NCBI GenBank assembly: GCA_964653045.1
Contig: CAZZBW010000002.1
Coordinates: 298-64,297, forward strand
Reading direction: 5' to 3'
DNA from: an uncultured Pseudomonadales bacterium
Lineage (GTDB): Bacteria; Patescibacteriota; Microgenomatia; UBA1400; PJMF01
DNA: 64,000 nt
The notes under the pieces are model-generated. The model searched no databases. It saw nothing but the letters and a program-made list of their open reading frames with translations, and had not been told where the DNA came from. Position numbers and translations under genes: made by a program. Positions 3,924-60,566 of the stretch are shown here, piece by piece; the first letter of the stretch is position 1; each line of letters starts with the position of its first letter.

Positions 3924-3934
3924 AATATTCTTAC

Positions 3935-3996
3935 GGAAGCGTCGCACCTGCCCGCAATGCATACGCATAGCGTTGCAGGCGGGTAGCGGTCAATTG
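3935..3996 (+). other. partial 5' copy of tRNA-Ser (acceptor stem + D arm) interrupted by a 37-nt insert
   Basis: ggaagcgtcgca + insert + tagcggtcaattg is identical to nt 1-25 of the downstream tRNA except for the insert in the D loop. Confidence 0.55.
3947..3983 (+). repeat. 37-nt GC-rich element (inverted-repeat arm U)
   Basis: cctgcccgcaatgcatacgcatagcgttgcaggcggg; its exact reverse complement is at 4161-4197; a near copy is at 12909-12944. Confidence 0.7.
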
Positions 3997-4055
3997 AAAA
4001 ACACTACAACTGACAACCATACTGAAATTAGACTAGAATTAACAAGTAGAAAAAA

Positions 4056-4143
4056 GGAAGCGTCGCATAGCGGTCAATTGCACCGGTCTTGAAAACCGGA
4101 ACCCGCAAGGGTTTCGTGGGTTCGAATCCCACCGCTTCCGCCA
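4056..4143 (+). tRNA. tRNA-Ser (anticodon TGA), type II with long variable arm, CCA encoded
   Basis: Cloverleaf folds by eye: acceptor GGAAGCG/CGCTTCC, anticodon stem CCGGT/ACCGG with loop CTTGAAA, variable arm ACCCGCAAGGGT, T arm GTGGG-TTCGAAT-CCCAC, discriminator G. Confidence 0.85.
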
Positions 4144-4160
4144 GGAAAGGTGGGATGAGA

Positions 4161-4197
4161 CCCGCCTGCAACGCTATGCGTATGCATTGCGGGCAGG
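4161..4197 (-). repeat. 37-nt GC-rich element (inverted-repeat arm D), perfect reverse complement of 3947-3983
   Basis: cccgcctgcaacgctatgcgtatgcattgcgggcagg. Confidence 0.7.
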
Positions 4198-4288
4198 AGT
4201 TTACTCTGAATTAGATTCAGGGAATCCCACCACTTCCGCCGCAACAATCGTTACCACTACCGTTTCAAAAAAATTAAATACAATTGAT

Positions 4289-5104
4289 ATGACGCATAAC
4301 AAGATCAGCTTGAATCCCTCCAAAACTCTGATTATAACTTGTTTGCTCATCATATTGTTTTCTTGGTCAATATTTATATTGATCCAAAATCTACAGCTGC
4401 AGAAACAAATTGAGCAACAGAATTCCTTGATCAGAACTCAAGCTCACGTAATTCAACAAAAAAATAATCAAACATCTCCAGAAGAAGTGATAAAACAAAA
4501 AGAAATAAATTTTTTCGTCAATGAAGTTCTTCCCAATTACCCAAATCTAATCGATACTGCCAAAGAGCAAATATTAGATGTTTTTGTTTTTTCTACTCAA
4601 AATAAAACGAGCGGTCGGCTAGTAGAAGCAGGAAATCCTGAAAACAAGTCTTATTACTTAATTTCAGATCAAGTACAAACTAGACTAAGAGACGTAATGA
4701 TTTCAAACTTGGGGGAAAACACTGTTTGTTCAAACTCCAAATTCATGACATTCGGCAATGATGCTGGTTTAGTGAGAAATTTAAAAGACGATAATGGCTA
4801 CATCATCATTGCCGGAGAGCATTGTCAAACATACAGCGGAGAAAATTCCATTGCGGTATATTCCTTGAGCACTGGGAATAAAATTAACTTAACAGGCAGA
4901 TTCACTGTTCCTGGGACTCGTTGGAGTGGCACAACTAATAATGGTACAGCTACCGGCATGCTTGTAGGTGTGTATGGAGATTTTGATCCAATTTTAGTTG
5001 TTAGTTATGGATCTCAATCAGGGGCGATGGACAGTGACATCAATCTCCTTGCATTTTTTGATTTGCAAACTGGCAAGCTCATGAGCACGCAAAAATTTGA
5101 TTAA
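4289..5104 (+). CDS. hypothetical membrane-anchored protein
   Basis: The ORF-track start at 4187 lies inside the inverted repeat, so the internal Met (MTHNK) followed by a TM helix is the likelier start; no domain recognised. Confidence 0.45.
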   Translation: MTHNKISLNPSKTLIITCLLIILFSWSIFILIQNLQLQKQIEQQNSLIRTQAHVIQQKNNQTSPEEVIKQKEINFFVNEVLPNYPNLIDTAKEQILDVFVFSTQNKTSGRLVEAGNPENKSYYLISDQVQTRLRDVMISNLGENTVCSNSKFMTFGNDAGLVRNLKDDNGYIIIAGEHCQTYSGENSIAVYSLSTGNKINLTGRFTVPGTRWSGTTNNGTATGMLVGVYGDFDPILVVSYGSQSGAMDSDINLLAFFDLQTGKLMSTQKFD

Positions 5105-6501: not shown

Positions 6502-7521
6502 TTAGATAAAATTTGGTGAAACTTGATTCACATTGATCACTCCAGCCAAAATCATTGCCAAGCGGTCGATACCTAGGCCAACGCCGGCCAAATTATTTTT
6601 GGCGTTGATTTTAACCGCTTGGAGAAAGTCGGTATCGCAATGAAAATTTTGGCCACCCATCTGAAGTTGCGCTAGTTGTTGAACGAAAACTTGTTCGAGT
6701 TTTTTTTCGTCAGTTTCTTCAACACAACCATTGGCAATTTCCAAGCCAGATATGTACAACTCGAAACGCTGGGCAAAAAGAGGTCGGTCCTGCTGTGTTT
6801 TCGCCATCGGCGAAAGCACAGCAGGAAAATCAGTCAGAAAAAACGGTTCTTTCGGCAAGTGTGGTTCAACTTCATTGAGAAGCACCTGATTAAAAACTGG
6901 CTCAAACTCTTTCTGGTCAATATGATACTTATTTCGCTCTGCAAACTGGAAAAGTAACTGATGATCCTCTAGTATCTCGGCTAAGTTTAGCTGACAATGT
7001 TGAGCAAACAACTCAATTAGCGACAGTTGTAACCACGGTTGTTCGAGTGCATAATTAGTATTCTGGTACACGAACTCATTACTTGCTGGACTTTTCTCAA
7101 TCGTTTTTAATGCCTGGTGACAAAAGATGAACAATCCTTGTGTTTCCTTCATCAGAAACTCCAATGACTGGTGAAATCGGTACCATTCTAACATCAGAAA
7201 CTCTGGCTGATGCTGGTCGCCACTCGCCTCAAGATTGCGAAAACTGTGACCTATGGCATAACTTTCTCCTAAACCTTGAGCAATCAGTTTTTTAAAGTTT
7301 TGCTCGGGAGAAGTGGCTAAAAACAGTTGTTGTTTGATGTCGTTTTGTTGCCAAGTGGTGTGAAACACACCAATGTTGGGCTCGAGCATCGGTGCTCGAG
7401 CCAAAATCGGTACTTGCGCCTCAATCAAACCCCGATTGTCAAAAAACTCTCGTACTGCCCGCGCAACTATTTGTCTGGTGATAAATCCCCGCCAGTGGGA
7501 ATCGTCTAAATTTTTTTTCAT
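6502..7521 (-). CDS. epmA: EF-P lysyl-lysine ligase-like class II aaRS paralogue (EpmA/PoxA/GenX)
   Basis: SFRNLE...PEFLMLEWYR (motif 2) and GLGIDRLAMILAG (motif 3); about 339 aa with no anticodon-binding domain. Confidence 0.7.
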   Translation of the reverse strand: MKKNLDDSHWRGFITRQIVARAVREFFDNRGLIEAQVPILARAPMLEPNIGVFHTTWQQNDIKQQLFLATSPEQNFKKLIAQGLGESYAIGHSFRNLEASGDQHQPEFLMLEWYRFHQSLEFLMKETQGLFIFCHQALKTIEKSPASNEFVYQNTNYALEQPWLQLSLIELFAQHCQLNLAEILEDHQLLFQFAERNKYHIDQKEFEPVFNQVLLNEVEPHLPKEPFFLTDFPAVLSPMAKTQQDRPLFAQRFELYISGLEIANGCVEETDEKKLEQVFVQQLAQLQMGGQNFHCDTDFLQAVKINAKNNLAGVGLGIDRLAMILAGVINVNQVSPNFI

Positions 7522-11735: not shown

Positions 11736-12881
11736 TTAGTTACAAAGGTGTGTCCAAATTTTATGCTTTAGTTGGGGAATGTTCTGCCCGCCAGCGGCCG
11801 AGAGAGCGAGACTCTCCCGGCCGCTGGCAAACTGCCGGAAATCGGCTAACGTTTTTTTATTAACCAGATCAATTTTGTTGGCAACGAGTAAAACGGGCTG
11901 GTTCGCACCCAGTTTGGTCAAGATTTGATCAACCACCTCAATTTTCTTGGGATATTCTTGATCAGATATGTCCACCATGTGCAGAATCAGTTTGGCTGAC
12001 ATAGATTCGAGCAAAGTGGACTCAAAAGCTTGAATCAACTGCGGTGGTAGCTGATCAATGAAACCAATCGTGTCAGACAAAATAATCGGCAGATTGCCCG
12101 ACGGCGCCTTCATCAAACCGACAACCGTGTCCAGAGTGGTAAACAGCTTGGCGCTGGTGGTTTTATTCTTACCAGTTAGAGCGTTGAACAGGGTCGTTTT
12201 ACCCGCACTGGTATACCCCACCAGCGCCACCGGTCCTAACCCTAGCTCTGAGCGCCGATCAATCCGGTCACCTTTTTGTTTTTTGACTTTGTTCAACCGT
12301 TCGACCAAAAACTGGCGCCGTTTCTTTAGTTGTCTTTTTTCAAACTCAATATTAGTTTCACCTTTTCCCCGGGTGCCAATTCCCCCTCCCTGACGTGACA
12401 GTTCAGTCTCTCCCAGACCGTATATTCGTGGACCTTTGTGATCGAGTTTGGCCAGCTCAATTTGCAGCTTGGCCTCGACTGATCCAGCATGCTTTTCAAA
12501 AATTGCCAAGATCAGATCGACTCGATCCCAAACTTTGATCGCGGGCGCTGTCTGCCACAGCGCCCGCTCCACCCGAAACAGCTGACTTGGTTTGACGATA
12601 TCGTTCACCACTACAATCGCTACCCTTTGACTGACAATTTCTTGCTTCAGCCATTCCAGTTTGCCTTTGCCGATATAACTCCCAGGGTCAGGCTTGACCC
12701 GATGCTGAGTGACTTTGCCCACAATCACACCACCAAGGGTATGAACCAATTGGGTCAGCTCCACCATATTGGCTTTGGCCAAATCATGATGATAATGAGG
12801 ATCAATTACTTGGATAAGTAAACAGCGCGGGTTTTGCATGACTAAGGCGGTATAATAAACTACTATCACCTCAAACAGCAA
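11736..12881 (-). CDS. hflX: GTPase HflX
   Basis: HflX N-domain followed by G-domain VALVGYTSAGKTTLFNALTG, DTIGFI, NKID; start may be the TTG at 12881 or the ATG at 12839. Confidence 0.85.
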   Translation of the reverse strand: MLFEVIVVYYTALVMQNPRCLLIQVIDPHYHHDLAKANMVELTQLVHTLGGVIVGKVTQHRVKPDPGSYIGKGKLEWLKQEIVSQRVAIVVVNDIVKPSQLFRVERALWQTAPAIKVWDRVDLILAIFEKHAGSVEAKLQIELAKLDHKGPRIYGLGETELSRQGGGIGTRGKGETNIEFEKRQLKKRRQFLVERLNKVKKQKGDRIDRRSELGLGPVALVGYTSAGKTTLFNALTGKNKTTSAKLFTTLDTVVGLMKAPSGNLPIILSDTIGFIDQLPPQLIQAFESTLLESMSAKLILHMVDISDQEYPKKIEVVDQILTKLGANQPVLLVANKIDLVNKKTLADFRQFASGRESLALSAAGGQNIPQLKHKIWTHLCN

Positions 12882-12896
12882 ATGGTGTTAACAATA

Positions 12897-12959
12897 GGAA
12901 GCGTCGCACCTGCCCGAATGCGTACGCATAGCGTTGTAGGCGGGTAGCGGTCAATTGCA
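12897..12959 (+). other. second partial 5' copy of tRNA-Ser interrupted by a 36-nt insert (paralogue of 3935-3996)
   Basis: ggaagcgtcgca + cctgcccgaatgcgtacgcatagcgttgtaggcggg + tagcggtcaattgca; the insert contains the perfect 12-bp palindrome ATGCGTACGCAT. Confidence 0.55.
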
Positions 12960-12980
12960 TTATAATAAAAACATTAAATT

Positions 12981-13068
12981 GGAAGCGTCGCATAGCGGTC
13001 AATTGCACTGGTTTCGAAAACCAGAGCCTTCACCGGCTTCGTGGGTTCGAATCCCACCGCTTCCGCCA
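12981..13068 (+). tRNA. tRNA-Ser (anticodon CGA), type II, CCA encoded
   Basis: 5' 25 nt identical to the tRNA at 4056; anticodon stem CTGGT/ACCAG with loop TTCGAAA; long variable arm; same T arm and acceptor. Confidence 0.85.
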
Positions 13069-25400: not shown

Positions 25401-27035
25401 AGTTGATAAACACGATACACAAGACCAACCGGTGGGTGGGGTTGCACCATCCCAAAAGGCTAAGACGTTGTAGACAGCATCGGAAGCCACCTGCCACTGG
25501 CGCAACTCTTGAAAAATAATCGTTTCTTGATTAGTCACGGTTCCTGCACTGCTGGTGGCGGCAGAATCTGATGCAACTTCGGCATCTGGTAACGAATCAG
25601 CGTTGACGTCAGCGGATTCCGTCGAGTCTAGCACTGGCTCAAGAATCACATTACTATCTGCTTCAATCTGGTTGGAAGGAGAGGACTCGGCCGCTGCGGT
25701 TGGTGATTCGTCAGTGAAAATATCGAGATCCAACGCTCCCTCAATTACTTGCGTCGACTCCACCAACCGCAGTGGCCCCAGCAGATAAAACTGCGGGGAT
25801 ATTTCCGGAGCTTGATATTGATACCCAATTAGCAATATTTCATCTGGGTCCAGCACTTCATCCCAAATGATATTTTGCACACCGTTCTCTACGTCAATTT
25901 CAATCCGATCGTAATCGCGAAACCCGGCACCGACAAATGGTGAAATCTCAAACTCAAGTGGCACCGGCTCGATGATCGAGCCGGTGAACTCTTGTCTGGC
26001 CACCACCTCCACCATCACCGAGTAAGTGTTGGGTGGGTAAATCCGGGTGGCCGACGAGTGCTCAATCTCAAATGGGACCTCATCCCAAACCTCAATGTAA
26101 TCGCTAACAGCGTAACTACCGTTGACAGTGACTGCGCTCAGTTCTAGCTCGTATCTGCCCACTCCTCCCAACTGGTAGGCAGACTGGTAATCCGGGACAT
26201 CGGTCACTGCACTTTCTTTGCACTCAGGATTGACAGTAATTAGTCCATTAGTTGTCGACAACTCATCAACTTTTTGCTGATCGGGATGATAAATTTTTAA
26301 ACTTAGATCTGCGTCACACACCATCGCGCCATTTTCATCCAACACGGCAAAAGCCAATTGCGCTTCTTCTTCTGGTAAATAGATTGATCGATTGGCATTC
26401 AGCGCTAAAACCCCCCAGGTGAAATCTTGGGCGAAAACTTCCCGATCTCCTTCGTAAACCTCAAGGTGAAACTTGCCCGGCCGGACACTGCCCACGGGCG
26501 TGACCAACAGCTGCCCATCTTCGAAGCTAGTTTGAATCGTCACTGGCTCCTCAGCATAATCTGTCACCACAATTTCCAACTCTTCTGGCTGATAATCTAG
26601 CAGCTCCAACTCGATTCCCTCGTTGATCTGGAAATCCTTGTCCTTCATTGTCAGCTTACGCATCCGCAATAACTCTTTGATAATGTTCCAAACTTGCGTC
26701 GGCTTGCTTTTTTCGACCTTTTGATCAGCATCAGTTTCGTCTGGAGCGATCGTCGGAGTAAGCGTTGGTGAAATTGATGGTGTAATTGTGGGGGAAATAG
26801 TTGGCGCCAAATCAGTTGGCTGAGGAACAAGTGCATCGGTTGGCTCGGCTTCAGCCGAGCCAACCGATGGTTCTAGCGTGATAGTAGGTAATTCTGGAGC
26901 ACTATGGATTGGCTGAATATTCGGAATAACAGATTCACTCACCTGTGCTTCTGCCTCGGCAACCATTCGGCCAACTCCCAACGAAAAACCAACCAACACA
27001 AACAAAGCCACGATAGTTGGCTTAAACTTAATCAT
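22473..27035 (-). CDS. giant secreted surface adhesin (1520 aa) with Ig/FN3-like domains, phage tail-fibre-like HxH / LPxYR repeats and WxL-like C-terminal domain
   Basis: Signal peptide, Pro-rich linker, acidic linker, and four to five repeats containing HxH (THTH, NHTH, SHNH) followed by LPxYR / FLRG motifs (aa about 565-840); C-terminus shared with 20456-21517. Confidence 0.6.
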   Translation of the reverse strand: MIKFKPTIVALFVLVGFSLGVGRMVAEAEAQVSESVIPNIQPIHSAPELPTITLEPSVGSAEAEPTDALVPQPTDLAPTISPTITPSISPTLTPTIAPDETDADQKVEKSKPTQVWNIIKELLRMRKLTMKDKDFQINEGIELELLDYQPEELEIVVTDYAEEPVTIQTSFEDGQLLVTPVGSVRPGKFHLEVYEGDREVFAQDFTWGVLALNANRSIYLPEEEAQLAFAVLDENGAMVCDADLSLKIYHPDQQKVDELSTTNGLITVNPECKESAVTDVPDYQSAYQLGGVGRYELELSAVTVNGSYAVSDYIEVWDEVPFEIEHSSATRIYPPNTYSVMVEVVARQEFTGSIIEPVPLEFEISPFVGAGFRDYDRIEIDVENGVQNIIWDEVLDPDEILLIGYQYQAPEISPQFYLLGPLRLVESTQVIEGALDLDIFTDESPTAAAESSPSNQIEADSNVILEPVLDSTESADVNADSLPDAEVASDSAATSSAGTVTNQETIIFQELRQWQVASDAVYNVLAFWDGATPPTGWSCVSCLSTEPYYQVFPRGAATSGGTGGLIEHSHGMTFVSHTGANSTLPYRNNSLIQTLSTHTHGWSGASTGVGTNLPTYRNLKVIKYDTTGVPTSIPDGLILMFDATPSPVTGWTRYSTQDLAFLRGEGNTTGTGGADNHTHNYSGSLTASSNFGGATGAAGSFAIDTHTHTVSGTNASATHLPDRIDVLLYKNTSGADKYFTGGEIVMVEGTIGTNWTSLSDSGGAFYQRFLRGASSYASVNGTASHNHTNATVTSGGPSASSGGTNQKPYGNQATSTHTHDVTLSFDTQPHLPPYRDVVIAKKTSVGTPATKPTIEGNLYYDKAKITDTTPIIRFKSTDTESNNLTYQIQISSDPSFTSPEIDDVSETDLGFLNVGNESDLDPFTAGDTISYTVQAGNALTNGTTYFYQVRAMDIAGTETWSAWSDRRSLTIDTSLSKGNAWFETHGEQFESDTLGSNAEVNYTSNYVQVTSGTDMVLSTPIVAAQIQPSETTWGYFMVGDDQTNGTIIYQVFYDNSGTPTIIPDGALSGNSTGFDGSAGVDLSGLSTTTYATIYLKATLTYGTGSPQLQDWLVSFGSMNTAPNDPTNLSQEKTDQTILSVGDWTDETSVVFTANVSDPDNPDTLQLCVEVQPLNISFTGVETGCGTGVAYSGSAVEATVTLSSLPDEMEYHWQARTKDSFGAYSDWVSFGNNTEAERDFGIDTTAPDDGTVYDGTETGVDKMLNDGSLSSLSANFVGFNEAVSEIDYYEYAIGTTVGGTELVSWTNVGTDTSVTVSGQSLQTSVVYYFTVRATDLAGNTSTGASSDGQLVAPTLSFAVSPENVTFDNLGPGNSYTATEQVTLTTSTNAYAGYVIRAYTTDLLRSILYPTNEIANFSAGSYATPAEWGTGDLGFGYHSSDTSIQGVDLFNDTPCPGGGSPPCYAPFDQESPGDIMADHTAAVSGTPITNEQFNVDLKVRVDSGQAATQYSTTVIYAVTPQY

Positions 27036-33759: not shown

Positions 33760-34419
33760 GTGATAACAAAAGTACTCAGTTGTGCGTGGTCGTGGATTCT
33801 GGATTTTATTTTTCCTCAGTTCTGTGTCAACTGTGGTAAGTTTGGACAATTACTCTGCCCCAGTTGCTTTGCTCAACTAGAGTTTCATACTGCTCCAATT
33901 CGGTTAGTTTTACCAGAACGACACTTAGACAGCGTTTGGGCGTGTTGTGTGTATAAAGGTGCAATCAAAAAGTTGATCAAAGCGCTCAAGTACCAAAGTA
34001 TCAAAGATGCTGGAGCAGTGTGCGGCCAGCTGCTGTACTACTGCAGCTGGCCGCCCCAAGATATCGATTGCCTGACCGCTGTCCCTATTCATCCCAAACG
34101 TCGTCAAGAAAGAGGCTTCAATCAAGCCGAGTTGATTGCTCAGACTCTGGCCCAACTGATGAGCAAACCTTACGTACCATTGCTGCTAAGACTGCACCAC
34201 ACCCCCCAACTAGCCAAACTCAAGCATCGTCAGGATCGACTTAAGCAATTAGAAAATCAGATTGGAATTAATCCAATTTTTAACCACAAAGCTCCGCCTA
34301 AGGTATTAATCATCGATGACGTTGTTACCAGTGGCGCTACTCTAAACGAGTGCGCCAACGTTTTGAAACAGCACGGTTACACCAAAGTTAACGCTCTGTG
34401 TGTCGCTCACGGCATGTAA
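33760..34419 (+). CDS. comFC: ComF-family competence protein / phosphoribosyltransferase (ComFC-like)
   Basis: N-terminal double zinc-ribbon CVNCG...CPSCF, C-terminal PRTase motif LIIDDVVTSGATL. Confidence 0.75.
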   Translation: MITKVLSCAWSWILDFIFPQFCVNCGKFGQLLCPSCFAQLEFHTAPIRLVLPERHLDSVWACCVYKGAIKKLIKALKYQSIKDAGAVCGQLLYYCSWPPQDIDCLTAVPIHPKRRQERGFNQAELIAQTLAQLMSKPYVPLLLRLHHTPQLAKLKHRQDRLKQLENQIGINPIFNHKAPPKVLIIDDVVTSGATLNECANVLKQHGYTKVNALCVAHGM

Positions 34420-39101: not shown

Positions 39102-39293
39102 AGTGCGATTAGGATACCGTAATCGTAGTACCTTGTCAAACTCTAAGTCGAAAACACTGGCATTGCTCAGTTGCGATTGACCAAGGTAAAAATCAAAAGA
39201 AGTTGAGTTTTGACTTACTTGAATTTGGTTAGGACTGGCTGATAATTGCACTTCTGCAATTATCAGCCCCAATTCTTACATTAACCTTAAATA

Positions 39294-43063: not shown

Positions 43064-43070
43064 TACATTT

Positions 43071-43097
43071 CTGCGCCCCGCCGCCGGCGGGGCGCAG
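43071..43097. terminator. GC-rich perfect palindrome / hairpin ctgcgccccgccg-c-cggcggggcgcag
   Basis: 13-bp perfect stem, extendable with flanking tacatt/aatgta; downstream of the 43123-44052 (-) gene; no clear U-tract. Confidence 0.4.
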
Positions 43098-43122
43098 TAA
43101 TGTATTTCATTAAACCAAACCG

Positions 43123-44058: not shown

Positions 44059-46305
44059 TTATCCTCCGTTGCTACCTTCTATACTATGAATATACTCCAT
44101 AATCTTTCCGGCGTTAACAGTCCGCGGCTTACTACCTTCGGCCGGTCCTACCATCCCAGCGGCGTATAACTGGTCTAAAATTCTGGCGGCGCGGTTGTAG
44201 CCCAAGGAAAAGCGGCGCTGAATCATGGATGATGAAGCTTTGTCCGAAGTGACAATTAGTTTGGCTACTTCGAGAAACAGTTCGTCTCGTTCGTCACTGC
44301 CACCTCCGCCACTGCCAAATTTGCCACCAGAAGTGACACTCGCCTCATACTTTGAGGTCACTTCCTCAAGATATTCCGGTTGTTGGCCTTGTTTTTTGAC
44401 GAACTCAATAAGACGTTTTGTTTCGTCATCAGATACAAAAGTACCCTGCAGACGAAGAGGCTTGGCTCGGTCGGGGGGAATAAACAACATGTCCCCCCGA
44501 CCGAGCAGTTTTTCCGCTCCTGGTGTATCCAAGATCACTCTAGAATCCATCATCGAAGAGACGTTGAAGGCGATTCTGGCCGGAATGTTAGCTTTAATCA
44601 AACCAGTCAAGACATCAACTGAAGGACGTTGTGTTGCCAAAAGCAAGTGAATTCCGACTGCCCGCGCCATCTGAGCAATTCTGGTAATATTTTCCTCTAC
44701 GTCAGCTGGCGCGAACAGCATCACGTCAGCCAATTCATCTACCACCACTACAATTCGGTACATGGCGGTATACCCAGCTAACTCATTGTATGCATCAATA
44801 TGCCGGACACCGGCAGCAGATAGTTTTTTGTACCGCTCCTCCATCTCGTGGGTAGTCCACTTGAGTGAAGAGACCACCTGTTTGGTCTCGACAATTACTG
44901 GAGTCAACAAATGCGGTATGTTGTTATAACCACTCAGCTCCACCCGCTTAGGATCAACCAAAATCAATCTCACTTCGTCTGGAGAAGCCCGAAACAAAAT
45001 TGAGCATAAGAAACTATTGAGTGCGACTGACTTACCTGAGCCAGTCGCACCAGCGATCAACATGTGTGGCATGCGCGAAATATCGACCGCGTATGGTCTG
45101 TTGGCAACATCAATGCCCAGCGCTACCAACAATTTTGACTGATTTTGTTGCATTTGCGGCGAGCTGAGCATTTTGCGCAGCGTTACAAATTTGGCAGTGT
45201 GATTCGGCACTTCAATACCGACTAGTGAACGTCCAGCGATTGGTGCTTCGATCCTGATTTGACCAGTCGGAGCAGCTAAGGCTAGAGCCAAATCAGTCGA
45301 TAATCCAGTAATTTTTGATAGTTTTGTACCCCTAGTAATTTCCAGCGCGTACTGGGTGACAGAAGGTCCAAAATTGACTTCTTTAACTTTCGCTTTAATG
45401 CCAAACGAATCCAGGGTAGCCTCGATCATATCGGCGTTTTGGGAAACATCGCCCCGATCAGCCTCACCGCCATCGCTTTGATCCAATAAGCTCAAAGGAG
45501 GTAATTGCCATGGCCGATTTTGACCAGTCGGGACTGAGCTATTGGCGGAAGAAATAAGTGCCCCCACCTCTTCATCTGGCTCAATTAATGGAGGAATCGT
45601 AACCTTCTTTTGAGTCTTGGTTTGTTTAATTTCTTGATCAGAGTCAGGCTCCGCATTGCCAGGATTAATGGTAAATTTCGGCTTATTAATTAGCTGGGGC
45701 ATTTTAATTCCGGGTAAACTAAATCTTTTTTTCTCGTTTTTATCTTCATTATTCATATTTGGCAAAACTGGTTGGGTTTCTTTATTAGGCTGAGCCTTAC
45801 CTTTTAGAATACCAATTAATTCAAAGAACTCCTGCAACTTCATTTGTGCCATGATTACCATGCCGACAATAATTAATGTTAGAGAAAAAACCACTGCGCC
45901 GGCTGCAGAAAGCAGCCGGCCTAAATTTTGGTTGGTTGCCAAACCAACCTCACCATTACGAAACAAACTCATCCAACCCAAGAAAATCATGATTGTGCCC
46001 AATAGTACGTTGGGTTTGGCGGCTGACCATTTAAACTGGAGAAAGATTAATCCACTGGAAATAAATATAAATGGCAAGAACATTAACGCCAAACCCAGTT
46101 TTGAGATTAGAAAACTATTAATGCTACTTAACCAAACTCCCTGACCAGAAAACGAGATTAAAACTAACAAACCAATTGAGATCAACAGCACTCCAACAAT
46201 GGTATAAAGCGTGTGAGCTTTAAGATCGAGCTTGAATGGCAGTTTCGAACGTTTCCGCCTTTTTCCCATATTATAGGATATATCATACTTTCGGCTTGCG
46301 TTCAA
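44059..46305 (-). CDS. ftsK: DNA translocase FtsK/SpoIIIE
   Basis: N-terminal TM helices, AGATGSGKS Walker A, C-terminal gamma winged-helix (SSSMIQRRFSLGYNRAARI). Confidence 0.9.
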   Translation of the reverse strand: MNASRKYDISYNMGKRRKRSKLPFKLDLKAHTLYTIVGVLLISIGLLVLISFSGQGVWLSSINSFLISKLGLALMFLPFIFISSGLIFLQFKWSAAKPNVLLGTIMIFLGWMSLFRNGEVGLATNQNLGRLLSAAGAVVFSLTLIIVGMVIMAQMKLQEFFELIGILKGKAQPNKETQPVLPNMNNEDKNEKKRFSLPGIKMPQLINKPKFTINPGNAEPDSDQEIKQTKTQKKVTIPPLIEPDEEVGALISSANSSVPTGQNRPWQLPPLSLLDQSDGGEADRGDVSQNADMIEATLDSFGIKAKVKEVNFGPSVTQYALEITRGTKLSKITGLSTDLALALAAPTGQIRIEAPIAGRSLVGIEVPNHTAKFVTLRKMLSSPQMQQNQSKLLVALGIDVANRPYAVDISRMPHMLIAGATGSGKSVALNSFLCSILFRASPDEVRLILVDPKRVELSGYNNIPHLLTPVIVETKQVVSSLKWTTHEMEERYKKLSAAGVRHIDAYNELAGYTAMYRIVVVVDELADVMLFAPADVEENITRIAQMARAVGIHLLLATQRPSVDVLTGLIKANIPARIAFNVSSMMDSRVILDTPGAEKLLGRGDMLFIPPDRAKPLRLQGTFVSDDETKRLIEFVKKQGQQPEYLEEVTSKYEASVTSGGKFGSGGGGSDERDELFLEVAKLIVTSDKASSSMIQRRFSLGYNRAARILDQLYAAGMVGPAEGSKPRTVNAGKIMEYIHSIEGSNGG

Positions 46306-59348: not shown

Positions 59349-60566
59349 CTAACCAAATACTTTTTTGACTTTTTTCAATCCGTCAACCAGCTTGTCGATG
59401 TCTTCTGGTGAATTATAAACACCAAAGCTGGCGCGAACGGTTGCCGTCCAACCGAAGTGGGTATGTAGCGGCATACAACAGTGGTGACCGGAGCGCACGG
59501 CGATGTTTTCACTATCCAAAATTTGAGCTACATCGTGAGCGTGGACACCGCGGTACAGGAATGCAATCGAGCCAAGGCGGGTGGCGTCGGTGGGACCGAC
59601 GAGCTCAATTTCTTTAATCTGTGAAAGTTTTTCGAGAGCCAGTGCGGTCAACTCCCAATCGTGGGAGTTGACCGCAGGCATAGTTAAGTCAGATAAAAAC
59701 TTGCACGCCTCGGCCAGCCCCGCGGCCGAGACGACATCCGGCGTGCCGGCAGTGAACCGCTCAGCCAACTCTTCGTTGTAAGTACTTTTATCTAAATTAA
59801 CCGCTTCGATCATCCCACCGCCGAATAAATAGGGACGAAACTCTTCGCTTGTTAACAAAGATTTTTTCACTAATAAGCCGCCAACTCCCATCGGCCCATA
59901 CATTTTGTGACCGGAAAAAGCAAGGAAATCTGCGCCAATTTTGTTAAAATCAATTTTAATTCTGGACGCGGCTTGAGCCGCGTCCAACAGTACCCGCACA
60001 CGATATTTTTTTGCTAGTTCAATCACGCGACCAACATCGTTAACTGTACCCAACGCATTAGATAAATAACTAACTGCCACCAACTTAACTTGTTGATTTA
60101 GGTGTTTTTCTAACCACTCATAATCTAATTGTCCGGTAGGTAAAACTGGGATGAATTCAAGCCGCGCGCCGGTGCGCGCGCACAACTCCTGCCACGGAAC
60201 AATGTTCGCGTGATGTTCCATCACGCTACTGATAATCACGTCCCCGGCATGCAAATTTCGTTCACCCCATCCATAAGCTACCGCATTGATACTTTCGGTA
60301 GCGTTTCGGGTAATGATCAGCTCTTCGGGTTGGGCACCAAAAAACTGTGCAATGGTTTTTCTTGCTTCTAACCAATTATTAGTACTAATATCGGACAATT
60401 TATGTACTCCGCGATGAACGTTGGCATTTGACGTTTGGTAATACTTTCCAATCGCGTCAATTACGCTTTCAGGTTTTTGGGTAGTGGCGGCATTATCCAA
60501 ATAAACTAAGTTAGGATAAGTGCGAAAAATGGAAAATTGGGATTTTAATAACACTGCGTTCAACAT
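59349..60566 (-). CDS. sufS: cysteine desulfurase (SufS-like, class V aminotransferase)
   Basis: PLP-dependent fold; SGHK lysine motif; C-terminal RSGHHC active-site Cys. Confidence 0.85.
   Translation of the reverse strand: MLNAVLLKSQFSIFRTYPNLVYLDNAATTQKPESVIDAIGKYYQTSNANVHRGVHKLSDISTNNWLEARKTIAQFFGAQPEELIITRNATESINAVAYGWGERNLHAGDVIISSVMEHHANIVPWQELCARTGARLEFIPVLPTGQLDYEWLEKHLNQQVKLVAVSYLSNALGTVNDVGRVIELAKKYRVRVLLDAAQAASRIKIDFNKIGADFLAFSGHKMYGPMGVGGLLVKKSLLTSEEFRPYLFGGGMIEAVNLDKSTYNEELAERFTAGTPDVVSAAGLAEACKFLSDLTMPAVNSHDWELTALALEKLSQIKEIELVGPTDATRLGSIAFLYRGVHAHDVAQILDSENIAVRSGHHCCMPLHTHFGWTATVRASFGVYNSPEDIDKLVDGLKKVKKVFG

Follow-up and report, generated by a model that had tools for sequence, protein, structure and literature searches.

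We describe here a 36-nt imperfect palindrome, designated X, that splits displaced copies of tRNA 5' ends, starting from a 64,000-nt stretch of the metagenomic contig CAZZBW010000002.1 (the window, by which we mean the whole stretch that was analysed), where three copies of X lie at two tRNA-Ser genes. X is a small selfish palindrome, widespread and precisely inserting, and the feature in the window is the local trace of an apparently undescribed family of tiny mobile elements. The reading that we favour, and that we regard as reasonably probable, is that X is a mobile palindrome which in Patescibacteria forms the left end of a cassette, and that the window holds nuclease-less versions of this cassette. 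Directly observed are the anatomy of the loci, the distribution of X, its precise insertion at sites that are empty elsewhere, a tight association of hairpin, nuclease gene and tRNA gene, and the occurrence of tandem or successive units.

The tRNA-Ser loci of the window

The intact tRNA-Ser(TGA) gene occupies positions 4056-4143 of the forward strand (ARAGORN; Rfam tRNA, 59.4 bits). Upstream of it on the same strand lies a displaced 5' piece, fragment b (3935-3946, GGAAGCGTCGCA), which comprises tRNA-Ser nt 1-12 as an exact direct repeat of 4056-4067, followed by X copy 1 (3947-3983), recognized by its match to the consensus and its hairpin fold, whose 37 nt comprise the 36-nt consensus and an additional A in the loop, and then by fragment a (3984-3996, TAGCGGTCAATTG), tRNA-Ser nt 13-25 as an exact direct repeat of 4068-4080. 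Fragment b joined to fragment a gives uninterrupted tRNA sequence, and the insertion point lies between tRNA nt 12 and 13, at the junction of the 5' strand of the D stem with the D loop. The initial annotation of this DNA, made from the letters alone, had described just such a partial copy of tRNA nt 1-25 split by a 37-nt insert, with the exact reverse complement of the insert at 4161-4197, and both descriptions proved accurate. Between fragment a and the intact gene is spacer S1 (3997-4055, forward strand), 59 nt of A+T-rich sequence that is conserved in the relative L178 and carries a sigma-70-like promoter for the intact tRNA; the site, CTGACA-18-TAGAAT at 4010-4039, matches the consensus at 10 of 12 positions and is identified by that match only.

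On the other side of the gene, X copy 2 lies inverted at 4161-4197 (reverse strand) and is identical to copy 1 at 37 of 37 positions, the lineage-specific extra loop base included. It interrupts a pre-existing downstream element on the forward strand, the left part of which (GGTGGGATGAGA, 4149-4160) consists of a copy of the T-stem 5' strand and a conserved ATGAGA, and runs uninterrupted into AGTTTAC in the relative L132. The right part (4198-4240) begins with AGTTTAC, continues with a small hairpin (CTGAAT/ATTCAG) and ends in a 19-nt copy of the tRNA 3' end (GAATCCCACCaCTTCCGCC, 4222-4240) that differs from 4124-4142 by one mismatch (95% identity); L132, L187 and L207 have a homologous arrangement. 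The perfect inverted repeat, first reported as 37 bp, extends to 38 bp (3947-3984 and 4160-4197), and dinucleotide shuffles of the window gave no match. As the initial annotation had supposed, a transcript spanning both copies could form a stem around the tRNA: the predicted fold of 3925-4250 contains the 38-bp stem, with a minimum free energy of -151.4 kcal/mol (z = -12.8). X copy 1 by itself folds as an imperfect hairpin (DNA fold, -12.8 kcal/mol, z = -3.4).

The downstream copy had also been said to overlap the start of the next open reading frame (ORF). It does overlap the annotated ORF, which begins at a TTG at 4187, encodes 305 aa and overlaps both X copy 2 and the tRNA 3'-end copy; that start is probably over-extended, however, because the alignment of four homologs (280-309 aa) begins at about the ATG at 4289.

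The TGA locus is not an assembly artefact, since its junction is reproduced in an independent Logan assembly of run SRR8925802, and L178, from a different metagenome, carries the same upstream fragment, X and spacer. The SRR8925802 assembly starts 30 nt inside the downstream X, a pattern that arises because of how repeats behave in a k = 31 graph, and then continues identically to the window.

A comparable arrangement at the second tRNA-Ser gene, tRNA-Ser(CGA) (12981-13068, forward strand; ARAGORN), had been overlooked in the initial annotation, as had the tRNA 3'-end copy at 4222-4240 and the hairpin nature of X itself. Here, again on the forward strand, fragment b (12897-12908) repeats nt 1-12 of the tRNA-Ser 5' end and is followed by X copy 3 (12909-12944), a degenerate 36-nt variant with one deletion and substitutions (92% identity to copy 1, also by blastn-short). 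This is a decaying copy, and it folds as poorly as expected (-5.7 kcal/mol, z = -0.55). The segment 12945-12980 comprises fragment a (12945-12959, a direct repeat of tRNA nt 13-27) and a 21-nt spacer with a TATAAT. In the orthologous CGA locus of L119 the same upstream gene and TATAAT are followed directly by the tRNA, and the window has 84 extra nt by comparison, exactly the block 12897-12980. At the CGA locus the conserved native promoter stands upstream of the fragment, which, together with X, would therefore probably do no more than lengthen a leader removed by RNase P. No downstream X copy is present at the CGA locus, and the tRNA-Arg and tRNA-Val genes of the window show no arrangement similar to that of the tRNA-Ser loci.

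We note that the apex of X (CGCATAGCG, X positions 17-25) is identical to tRNA-Ser nt 9-17 (4064-4072 and 12989-12997), and that X is inserted at the equivalent GCA/TAG position of the apex mini-hairpin, for which a rough chance estimate is ~0.004. The other invaded tRNAs do not show this identity. Recombination through the 9 nt shared by the X apex and the tRNA-Ser D arm was considered and dropped, as the predicted order of the products did not match.

Distribution and insertion of X

A scan with a 22-nt core of X, against one genome per species, found it in at least 118 contigs, so that the element is far from being confined to this genome; it was absence elsewhere, together with an assembly artefact at the locus, that the initial annotation had named as counting against its description. 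(Loci are given L numbers as labels, L001-L118 being the X-bearing ones.) The 36-nt consensus is CCTGCCCGCAATGC-TACGCATA-GCGTTGCAGGCGGG, and among the matches listed the 5' arm, and hence all 36 nt, is identical in 82 of 118 copies; the window copies around the TGA gene depart from the consensus by their one extra loop base. Among 80 of the contigs listed by title are 39 Patescibacteria, from many candidate phyla, and 33 members of the Planctomycetes-Verrucomicrobia-Chlamydiae (PVC) group (Verrucomicrobia, Lentisphaerae, Kiritimatiellia, Victivallis), with a few metagenome-assembled genomes (MAGs) labelled Gammaproteobacteria or Bdellovibrionales.

The flanks of X are different at each locus. 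Eleven filled sites could be paired with an empty one, in which the joined flanks run uninterrupted in the same locus or nearby, and these pairs show precise insertion with no target-site duplication in any of the 11. X prefers a purine at -1 (76%) and a C at +1 (55%), and a search for a target motif around X found nothing beyond these weak preferences. Its insertion contexts include tRNA genes (at nt 3 to 20), dnaK, the transfer-messenger RNA (tmRNA) gene, the loops of host hairpins and protein genes entered in frame. Hairpin loops are enriched about seven-fold, with flank complementarity of at least 7/8 in 9 of 118 copies versus 6 of 590 control positions, and some copies are nested within related palindromes. 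The suggestion of a tiny mobile palindrome that targets the tRNA D loop is therefore upheld as to mobility, given at least 118 contigs, several phyla and empty sites, while the D loop is not the target as such.

The length of X, 36 nt, equals 12 codons, and four of its six frames are open. Open frames of at least 150 codons span 62 of 120 X copies, compared with 84% of random positions, and the frame encoding PARNATHSVAGG is used in 41 of these 62, adding 12 residues to the host protein. X survives inside genes because of its 12-codon length and four open frames. The host proteins, as judged by eye from their translations, resemble PurL, RecG, LepA, ArgRS, GluRS, MetRS, MurE, ThiI, ComEC and the CCA-adding enzyme (example loci L086, L059, L109, L023, L015, L104, L025/L085/L058, L008, L103 and L076), and L025 and L085 have orthologous in-frame copies at the same MurE position. 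A further in-frame X lies in the 1409-codon open frame of L090, a UvrD/PcrA-like helicase gene with an apparent large intein-like insert, downstream of which the X is found.

Two other loci deserve mention. In L178 what stands as the first X copy, some 240 nt ahead of tRNA-Ser(TGA), consists of two degenerate copies in tandem, which shows that X is able to duplicate or to re-insert at itself. In L111 a tmRNA gene (4641-5060) follows a GIY-YIG ORF and contains X (4705-4740) in the loop of a helix; a nested X-like palindrome stands directly behind the first four bases of this gene, and no second intact tmRNA copy is visible at the locus.

A scan of viral contigs for X returned zero matches, leaving carriage by phages unsupported. 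In Rfam scans, the window region and ten related loci, which between them cover X, cassettes and the downstream element, gave only tRNA and sub-threshold noise. Literature searches with the DNA arms of X and with the four peptides that it encodes found nothing relevant, a keyword search found mitochondrial analogues only, and a paper on tRNA introns in Patescibacteria mentions neither hairpins nor GIY-YIG; within the incomplete coverage of these searches, neither X nor the cassette turned out to be described.

A GIY-YIG nuclease gene associated with X

Clustering of every ORF lying up to 1.5 kb from 120 copies of X left, as the sole recurrent neighbour, a small GIY-YIG ORF of about 78 aa (PF01541), present in 9-10 of the Patescibacteria X loci and always 12-45 nt from X. 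No transposase, recombinase, RAYT/Y1 or TnpA gene was found among these ORFs. The order of the unit is tRNA nt 1 to n, X, the next 9-15 tRNA nt, about 10 nt, the ORF, 0-15 nt and the intact tRNA, with the ORF in the orientation of the tRNA. Full units found from the X side involve tRNA-Val (L032, where the unit is tandemly doubled, and L041), tRNA-Met (L074), tRNA-Gln (L012, L082) and tRNA-Arg (L011).

The association was also approached from the protein. The nuclease ORF has at least 559 homologs, nearly all of 78-82 aa, and six of them were picked solely for their long contigs, blind to X. All six showed the series fragment, hairpin, 7-10 nt, ORF and intact tRNA, the tRNAs being Ile (two loci), Thr, Gln (two) and Leu, and the hairpin being X in either orientation or a GC-rich palindrome that is related or nested. 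The nuclease ORF is present in 16 related cassettes elsewhere. Among cassettes the insertion point varies from tRNA nt 3 to nt 20, and the distance from the hairpin to the rest of the cassette is constant at 7-16 nt. The closest solved relatives of the nuclease are small UPF0213 proteins (1zg2, E = 1.5e-5; 1ywl), and there is a weak match to SLX1.

Units without an ORF also occur. The two in the window are nuclease-less, with spacers of 59 nt (TGA) and 21 nt (CGA), and others are found at tRNA-Leu (L081), tRNA-Val (L072) and dnaK (L019). In the last of these the fragment reads MSKVLGIDLG, then X, then TTNS, and is followed by 28 nt and the intact gene; fragment and intact dnaK differ at many synonymous sites, and the fragment is for this reason not a recent local duplication.

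Related tRNA-Ser loci

Comparison of orthologous tRNA-Ser loci, a check proposed in the initial annotation, yielded empty sites (L119, L132) and one locus, L178, that is filled on the upstream side only. When metagenomes were scanned with the unusual D arm of the window tRNA-Ser, 76 loci were collected, and in most of these X is absent and the sites are empty. The L178 TGA locus, from a close relative, has in common with the window the upstream flank, the same fragment b, an X with the same extra loop base, and S1. A second series of fragment, X and spacer then precedes its tRNA, so that two successive scars are present, the second spacer resembling that of the window CGA locus; this double scar points to repeated invasion or to transfer between paralogs. 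L156 likewise has two successive 5' fragments.

Every 5' tRNA-Ser fragment found in these relatives is split by a hairpin at GCA/TAG. In the window and L178 this hairpin is X; in L128, L148 and L156 it is an unrelated sequence (for instance TCCTCCTTCG...). It seems that the GCA/TAG site, and not X itself, is the hot spot.

Downstream of the gene, L178 has no X, and in L132 GGTGGGATGAGA and AGTTTAC are contiguous, constituting the empty site of the downstream X. The sequence GGTGGGATGAGA-AGTTTAC...GGGAATCCCACCGCTTCCGC is an element that pre-existed downstream of tRNA-Ser genes, in L132 and others. In its generic form, G, the T-stem 5' strand and ATGAGAAGT are followed by either a variable hairpin or an insert of greater length (60-300 nt), behind which the T-stem 3' strand and the acceptor 3' strand are copied. 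We see it at 4149-4240 in the window and in L132 (where it is tandemly doubled), L187, L139, L136, L143, L191, L207 and L208; its sequence changes in step with the T stem of the respective tRNA (L139, L187, L191), and it has no Rfam match. It could be a 3'-side counterpart of the 5' scars, or an RNA without a known family. A hammerhead-like core in its GATGAGA motif was considered and dropped, as by eye the essential C and U are absent.

Both TGA copies of X in the window carry the extra loop base that is also found in L178, and for this reason the downstream copy 2 arose within the window lineage, as a recent and separate insertion in the opposite orientation. The inverted repeat is therefore an incidental by-product of two separate insertions and not a device.

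In L207, L208 and L209 a homolog of the window ORF 4289-5104 is preceded by a tRNA-Ser gene whose anticodon differs among the three (TGA, GGA, GCT). The differing anticodons suggest that the tRNA-Ser gene here has turned over or been replaced.

Proposed explanation

We propose that in Patescibacteria tRNA genes are invaded in their 5' part by a small selfish cassette whose left end is X or a related GC-rich hairpin. Such a cassette would bring a replacement 5' end, so that the invaded gene keeps working, and the original 5' end, split by the hairpin, would stay upstream as a dead fragment. Both tRNA-Ser genes of the window would carry a nuclease-less version, in which a short spacer with a promoter replaces the ORF, and the downstream inverted copy would represent a third X insertion, into an older element resembling a tRNA 3' end. 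The GIY-YIG protein presumably cuts at or near the hairpin or the target, and repair would copy the cassette into the empty gene, as in homing. If the nuclease reads the hairpin as a structure, this would explain both the fixed offset of 7-16 nt and the extreme conservation of X. Solo copies of X may have been moved in trans, and the window units may descend from ORF-bearing cassettes. With the fragment split, we further speculate, the cassette would be shielded from deletions between its direct repeats. With regard to the tRNA, the insertion appears to be neutral baggage.

Several observations weigh against this explanation. Within ~4 kb of about 90% of X copies, including all PVC ones, there is no nuclease gene, and X may be moved by an unrelated enzyme. 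No GIY-YIG gene or remnant was found in the 64-kb window (tblastn; 120-homolog profile, best E = 1.4), nor any GIY-YIG coding trace in the S1 spacer, and the descent of the window units from an ORF-bearing cassette is for this reason drawn by analogy. The orientation of the hairpin relative to the ORF varies among cassettes, and L072 departs from the usual order in having the ORF upstream of the fragment. The 78-aa protein is a catalytic domain without a DNA-reading domain. Finally, a regenerated tRNA would recreate any sequence-specific target, and classical homing would thus leave immunity unexplained.

A bolder suggestion, which we offer tentatively and ourselves consider doubtful, is that X together with the 78-aa GIY-YIG gene, about 330 bp in all, would be the smallest autonomous mobile DNA unit yet seen, its bare catalytic domain recognizing the hairpin structure and cutting ~10-15 nt away, with an ORF-less 36-bp form that also spreads across phyla. 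Such a unit would consist of the hairpin, ~10 nt, the nuclease ORF and the copy of the gene start, and both it and the 36-bp form would spare essential genes, through regeneration of the 5' end or through the addition of exactly 12 tolerated codons.

If the explanation that we favour is correct, many odd partial tRNA copies in Patescibacteria genomes would have a single explanation, and annotators would have a warning against pseudo-tRNA pieces and false ORF starts. The question would also arise of which enzyme reads so short a sequence so faithfully, the 36-bp element being the same in different phyla and lying in frame in aminoacyl-tRNA synthetases, LepA, RecG, MurE and others. A minimal system of nuclease plus hairpin, with a target rule of cutting at a set distance from a DNA hairpin, might moreover serve as a tool.

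Alternative explanations

A different account would have X as a palindrome of the repetitive extragenic palindromic (REP) or miniature inverted-repeat transposable element (MITE) kind, which landed by chance in partial tRNA duplications that already existed, for instance old att-type remnants, with the nuclease unrelated. The many X copies that lack a nearby nuclease gene would fit this account, as would the presence of X in many unrelated contexts, hairpin loops included, and the tRNA 3'-end copies downstream of tRNA-Ser in relatives without X, which indicate that duplications of tRNA ends arise independently. We nevertheless think it unlikely, as not one hairpin-free 5' fragment was found among the 76 related tRNA-Ser loci; the initial annotation had held that relatives with partial copies lacking the insert would speak against its interpretation, and none is seen. 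Nor does chance landing predict that, across more than 15 independent tRNA genes, the hairpin and the inner fragment end should stand a constant 7-16 nt apart, or account for the hairpin-split fragment at six of six nuclease genes sampled blind to X.

Alternatively, the inverted pair of X copies might be a functional device, a 38-bp stem around pre-tRNA-Ser that RNase III would cut like the stems flanking rRNA, serving in tRNA processing or regulation; the initial annotation had listed a structure of this kind among its possibilities. The predicted stem is very stable, and read-through from the upstream glycosyltransferase gene is possible, no terminator-like site having been found. This proposal fares badly all the same and we judge it very improbable: the stem is not conserved, as tRNA-Ser(CGA) has none and L178, the closest relative, has no arm downstream of its TGA gene; nor is it seen at the remaining tRNAs of the window; a promoter-like site lies within the repeat, so that most tRNA transcripts would be without the upstream arm; and each arm is explained by a separate insertion with its own empty site.

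Slighter still are the chances that X is the core site of a recombinase. The loxP and FRT sites are minimal tyrosine-recombinase sites in which two inverted arms enclose an asymmetric spacer, and X, with two 14-bp inverted arms around an asymmetric spacer of 8-9 bp, has a 14-8-14 layout that fits them; the 177-bp segment of promoter and tRNA between the copies would be invertible, and, having its own promoter-like site, would function whichever way round it lay. In 118 loci, however, the neighbourhood of X shows no recurrent recombinase gene, and most genomes have single dispersed copies, many of them intragenic and in frame. Furthermore, the inverted isoform of the segment was not seen in related contigs, and the window copies have a 9-nt and not an 8-nt centre.

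An artefact of assembly or library preparation, such as a chimeric join or an adapter-like hairpin, is suggested by the near-identity of a 36-mer in MAGs of very different phyla, as in a technical contaminant, and is effectively refuted by the occurrence of X in assemblies from many laboratories and pipelines, the mutational decay of its copies, the orthologous MurE insertions and the independently assembled junction; to our knowledge X is also unlike the adapter sequences of the common platforms.

Other features of the window

Many other GC-rich, near-perfect palindromes of 32-42 nt occur in the window, in a genome of 43% GC, and are unrelated to X in sequence. They lie at 2728-2768, 6788-6826, 11790-11828, 26834-26869, 34022-34054, 39237-39268, 43064-43104, 44465-44506 and 59643-59676, several of them inside ORFs. 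Compared with homologs, the palindrome of the HflX gene (11790-11828) is no insertion. No other protein exceeds 64% identity to the HflX of the window, whose named matches are Patescibacteria; the source organism is a deep-branching member of that group.

Comparison with known systems

The palindrome-bearing units of the window show likenesses to several established classes and fall outside most of them. The initial annotation had raised an att-site remnant at the 5' end of tRNA-Ser, and a displaced 5' end does stand beside a regenerated gene, as in the att duplications made by integrases; what is lacking is an integrase or an island. Integrase islands usually occupy the 3' end, span kilobases and carry an integrase gene, whereas the spacers here are 21-59 nt, or ~300 nt with the nuclease, and the fragment is split by a hairpin. 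With spacers of 59 and 21 nt, and no recombinase found in the window flanks, an integrase-type duplication was rejected. A tRNA intron (group I or II, or bulge-helix-bulge) was likewise rejected, the interrupted copy comprising only nt 1-25 or 1-27 and no Rfam family, intron or other, covering X at E up to 1. Trans-splicing was dropped as well, as was a split or permuted tRNA, the outer pieces being without anticodon and variable regions.

REP sequences, which together with their RAYT (REP-associated tyrosine transposase) form REPtrons, are dispersed imperfect palindromes of 20-40 bp, presumed to be recognized as hairpins, and X resembles them as an imperfect, hairpin-folding palindrome of 36-37 nt. 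Unlike REPs, X begins CCTGCCCG and has no conserved 5' GTAG, a GTAG being only internal in the T variant; it has no Y1/RAYT gene within 1.5 kb of the 120 copies, genomes hold few copies of it, many copies lie inside genes, and it is shared between phyla and not species-specific. We reject classification as a MITE, there being no target-site duplication in the eleven filled/empty pairs, and as a palindrome-associated transposable element (PATE) derived from IS200/IS605, given no fixed tetra- or pentanucleotide target, a single hairpin in place of two subterminal ones, and no TnpA found.

The Rickettsia palindromic elements are palindromic selfish DNA of ~100-150 bp that survives in frame in protein genes and is confined to one genus, Rickettsia. 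X shares with them the in-frame insertion in protein genes, seen in other genomes and not in the window, and differs in its 36 bp, a third of their size, in being nearly identical across phyla, and in occurring also in RNA genes and in a nuclease cassette. Fungal mitochondria contain mobile GC clusters and double-hairpin elements, tiny GC-rich hairpins in A+T-rich genomes that insert in intergenic and coding DNA; X differs from these in sequence and host and in its identity across phyla, and they are not known to be linked to a nuclease-tRNA cassette.

Free-standing GIY-YIG endonucleases of phages (the T4 Seg proteins, of which SegB lies in a tRNA gene cluster) and I-TevI spread by break repair with co-conversion of the flanks. 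The cassette is like them in placing a GIY-YIG gene beside or within tRNA genes. The Seg proteins and I-TevI have DNA-binding domains and at least 200 aa, with no obligatory hairpin and no duplication of a gene end; the cassette nuclease, by contrast, has ~78 aa and is closest to UPF0213, and both hairpin and gene-end duplication are present.

The nearest documented analogue of the cassettes is, in our comparison, the mobile ORFs (mORFs) of fungal mitochondria. In Allomyces atp6 and in Glomus atp6, atp9, cox2 and nad3, a free-standing endonuclease gene (GIY-YIG in atp9) enters an essential gene, bringing a replacement gene end and displacing the native end alongside, with synonymous differences possible between the two, which yields 'hybrid genes' (PMC3630166). 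The cassettes similarly replace a gene end and displace the native one, and the synonymous divergence of the dnaK unit is of the same kind. In the window, displaced ends at 3935-3996 and 12897-12959 stand beside the intact genes at 4056-4143 and 12981-13068, and presence/absence polymorphism is seen in the empty CGA locus of L119 and in most of the 76 related loci. Unlike mORFs, which carry their endonuclease ORF, the window units have none inside them. The cassettes in general differ from mORFs in that the 5' and not the 3' end is replaced, the hosts are bacterial tRNA and tmRNA genes, and the nuclease is a bare catalytic domain of ~78 aa. A conserved GC-rich palindrome always splits the displaced fragment of the cassette, a feature for which no described mORF offers a counterpart.

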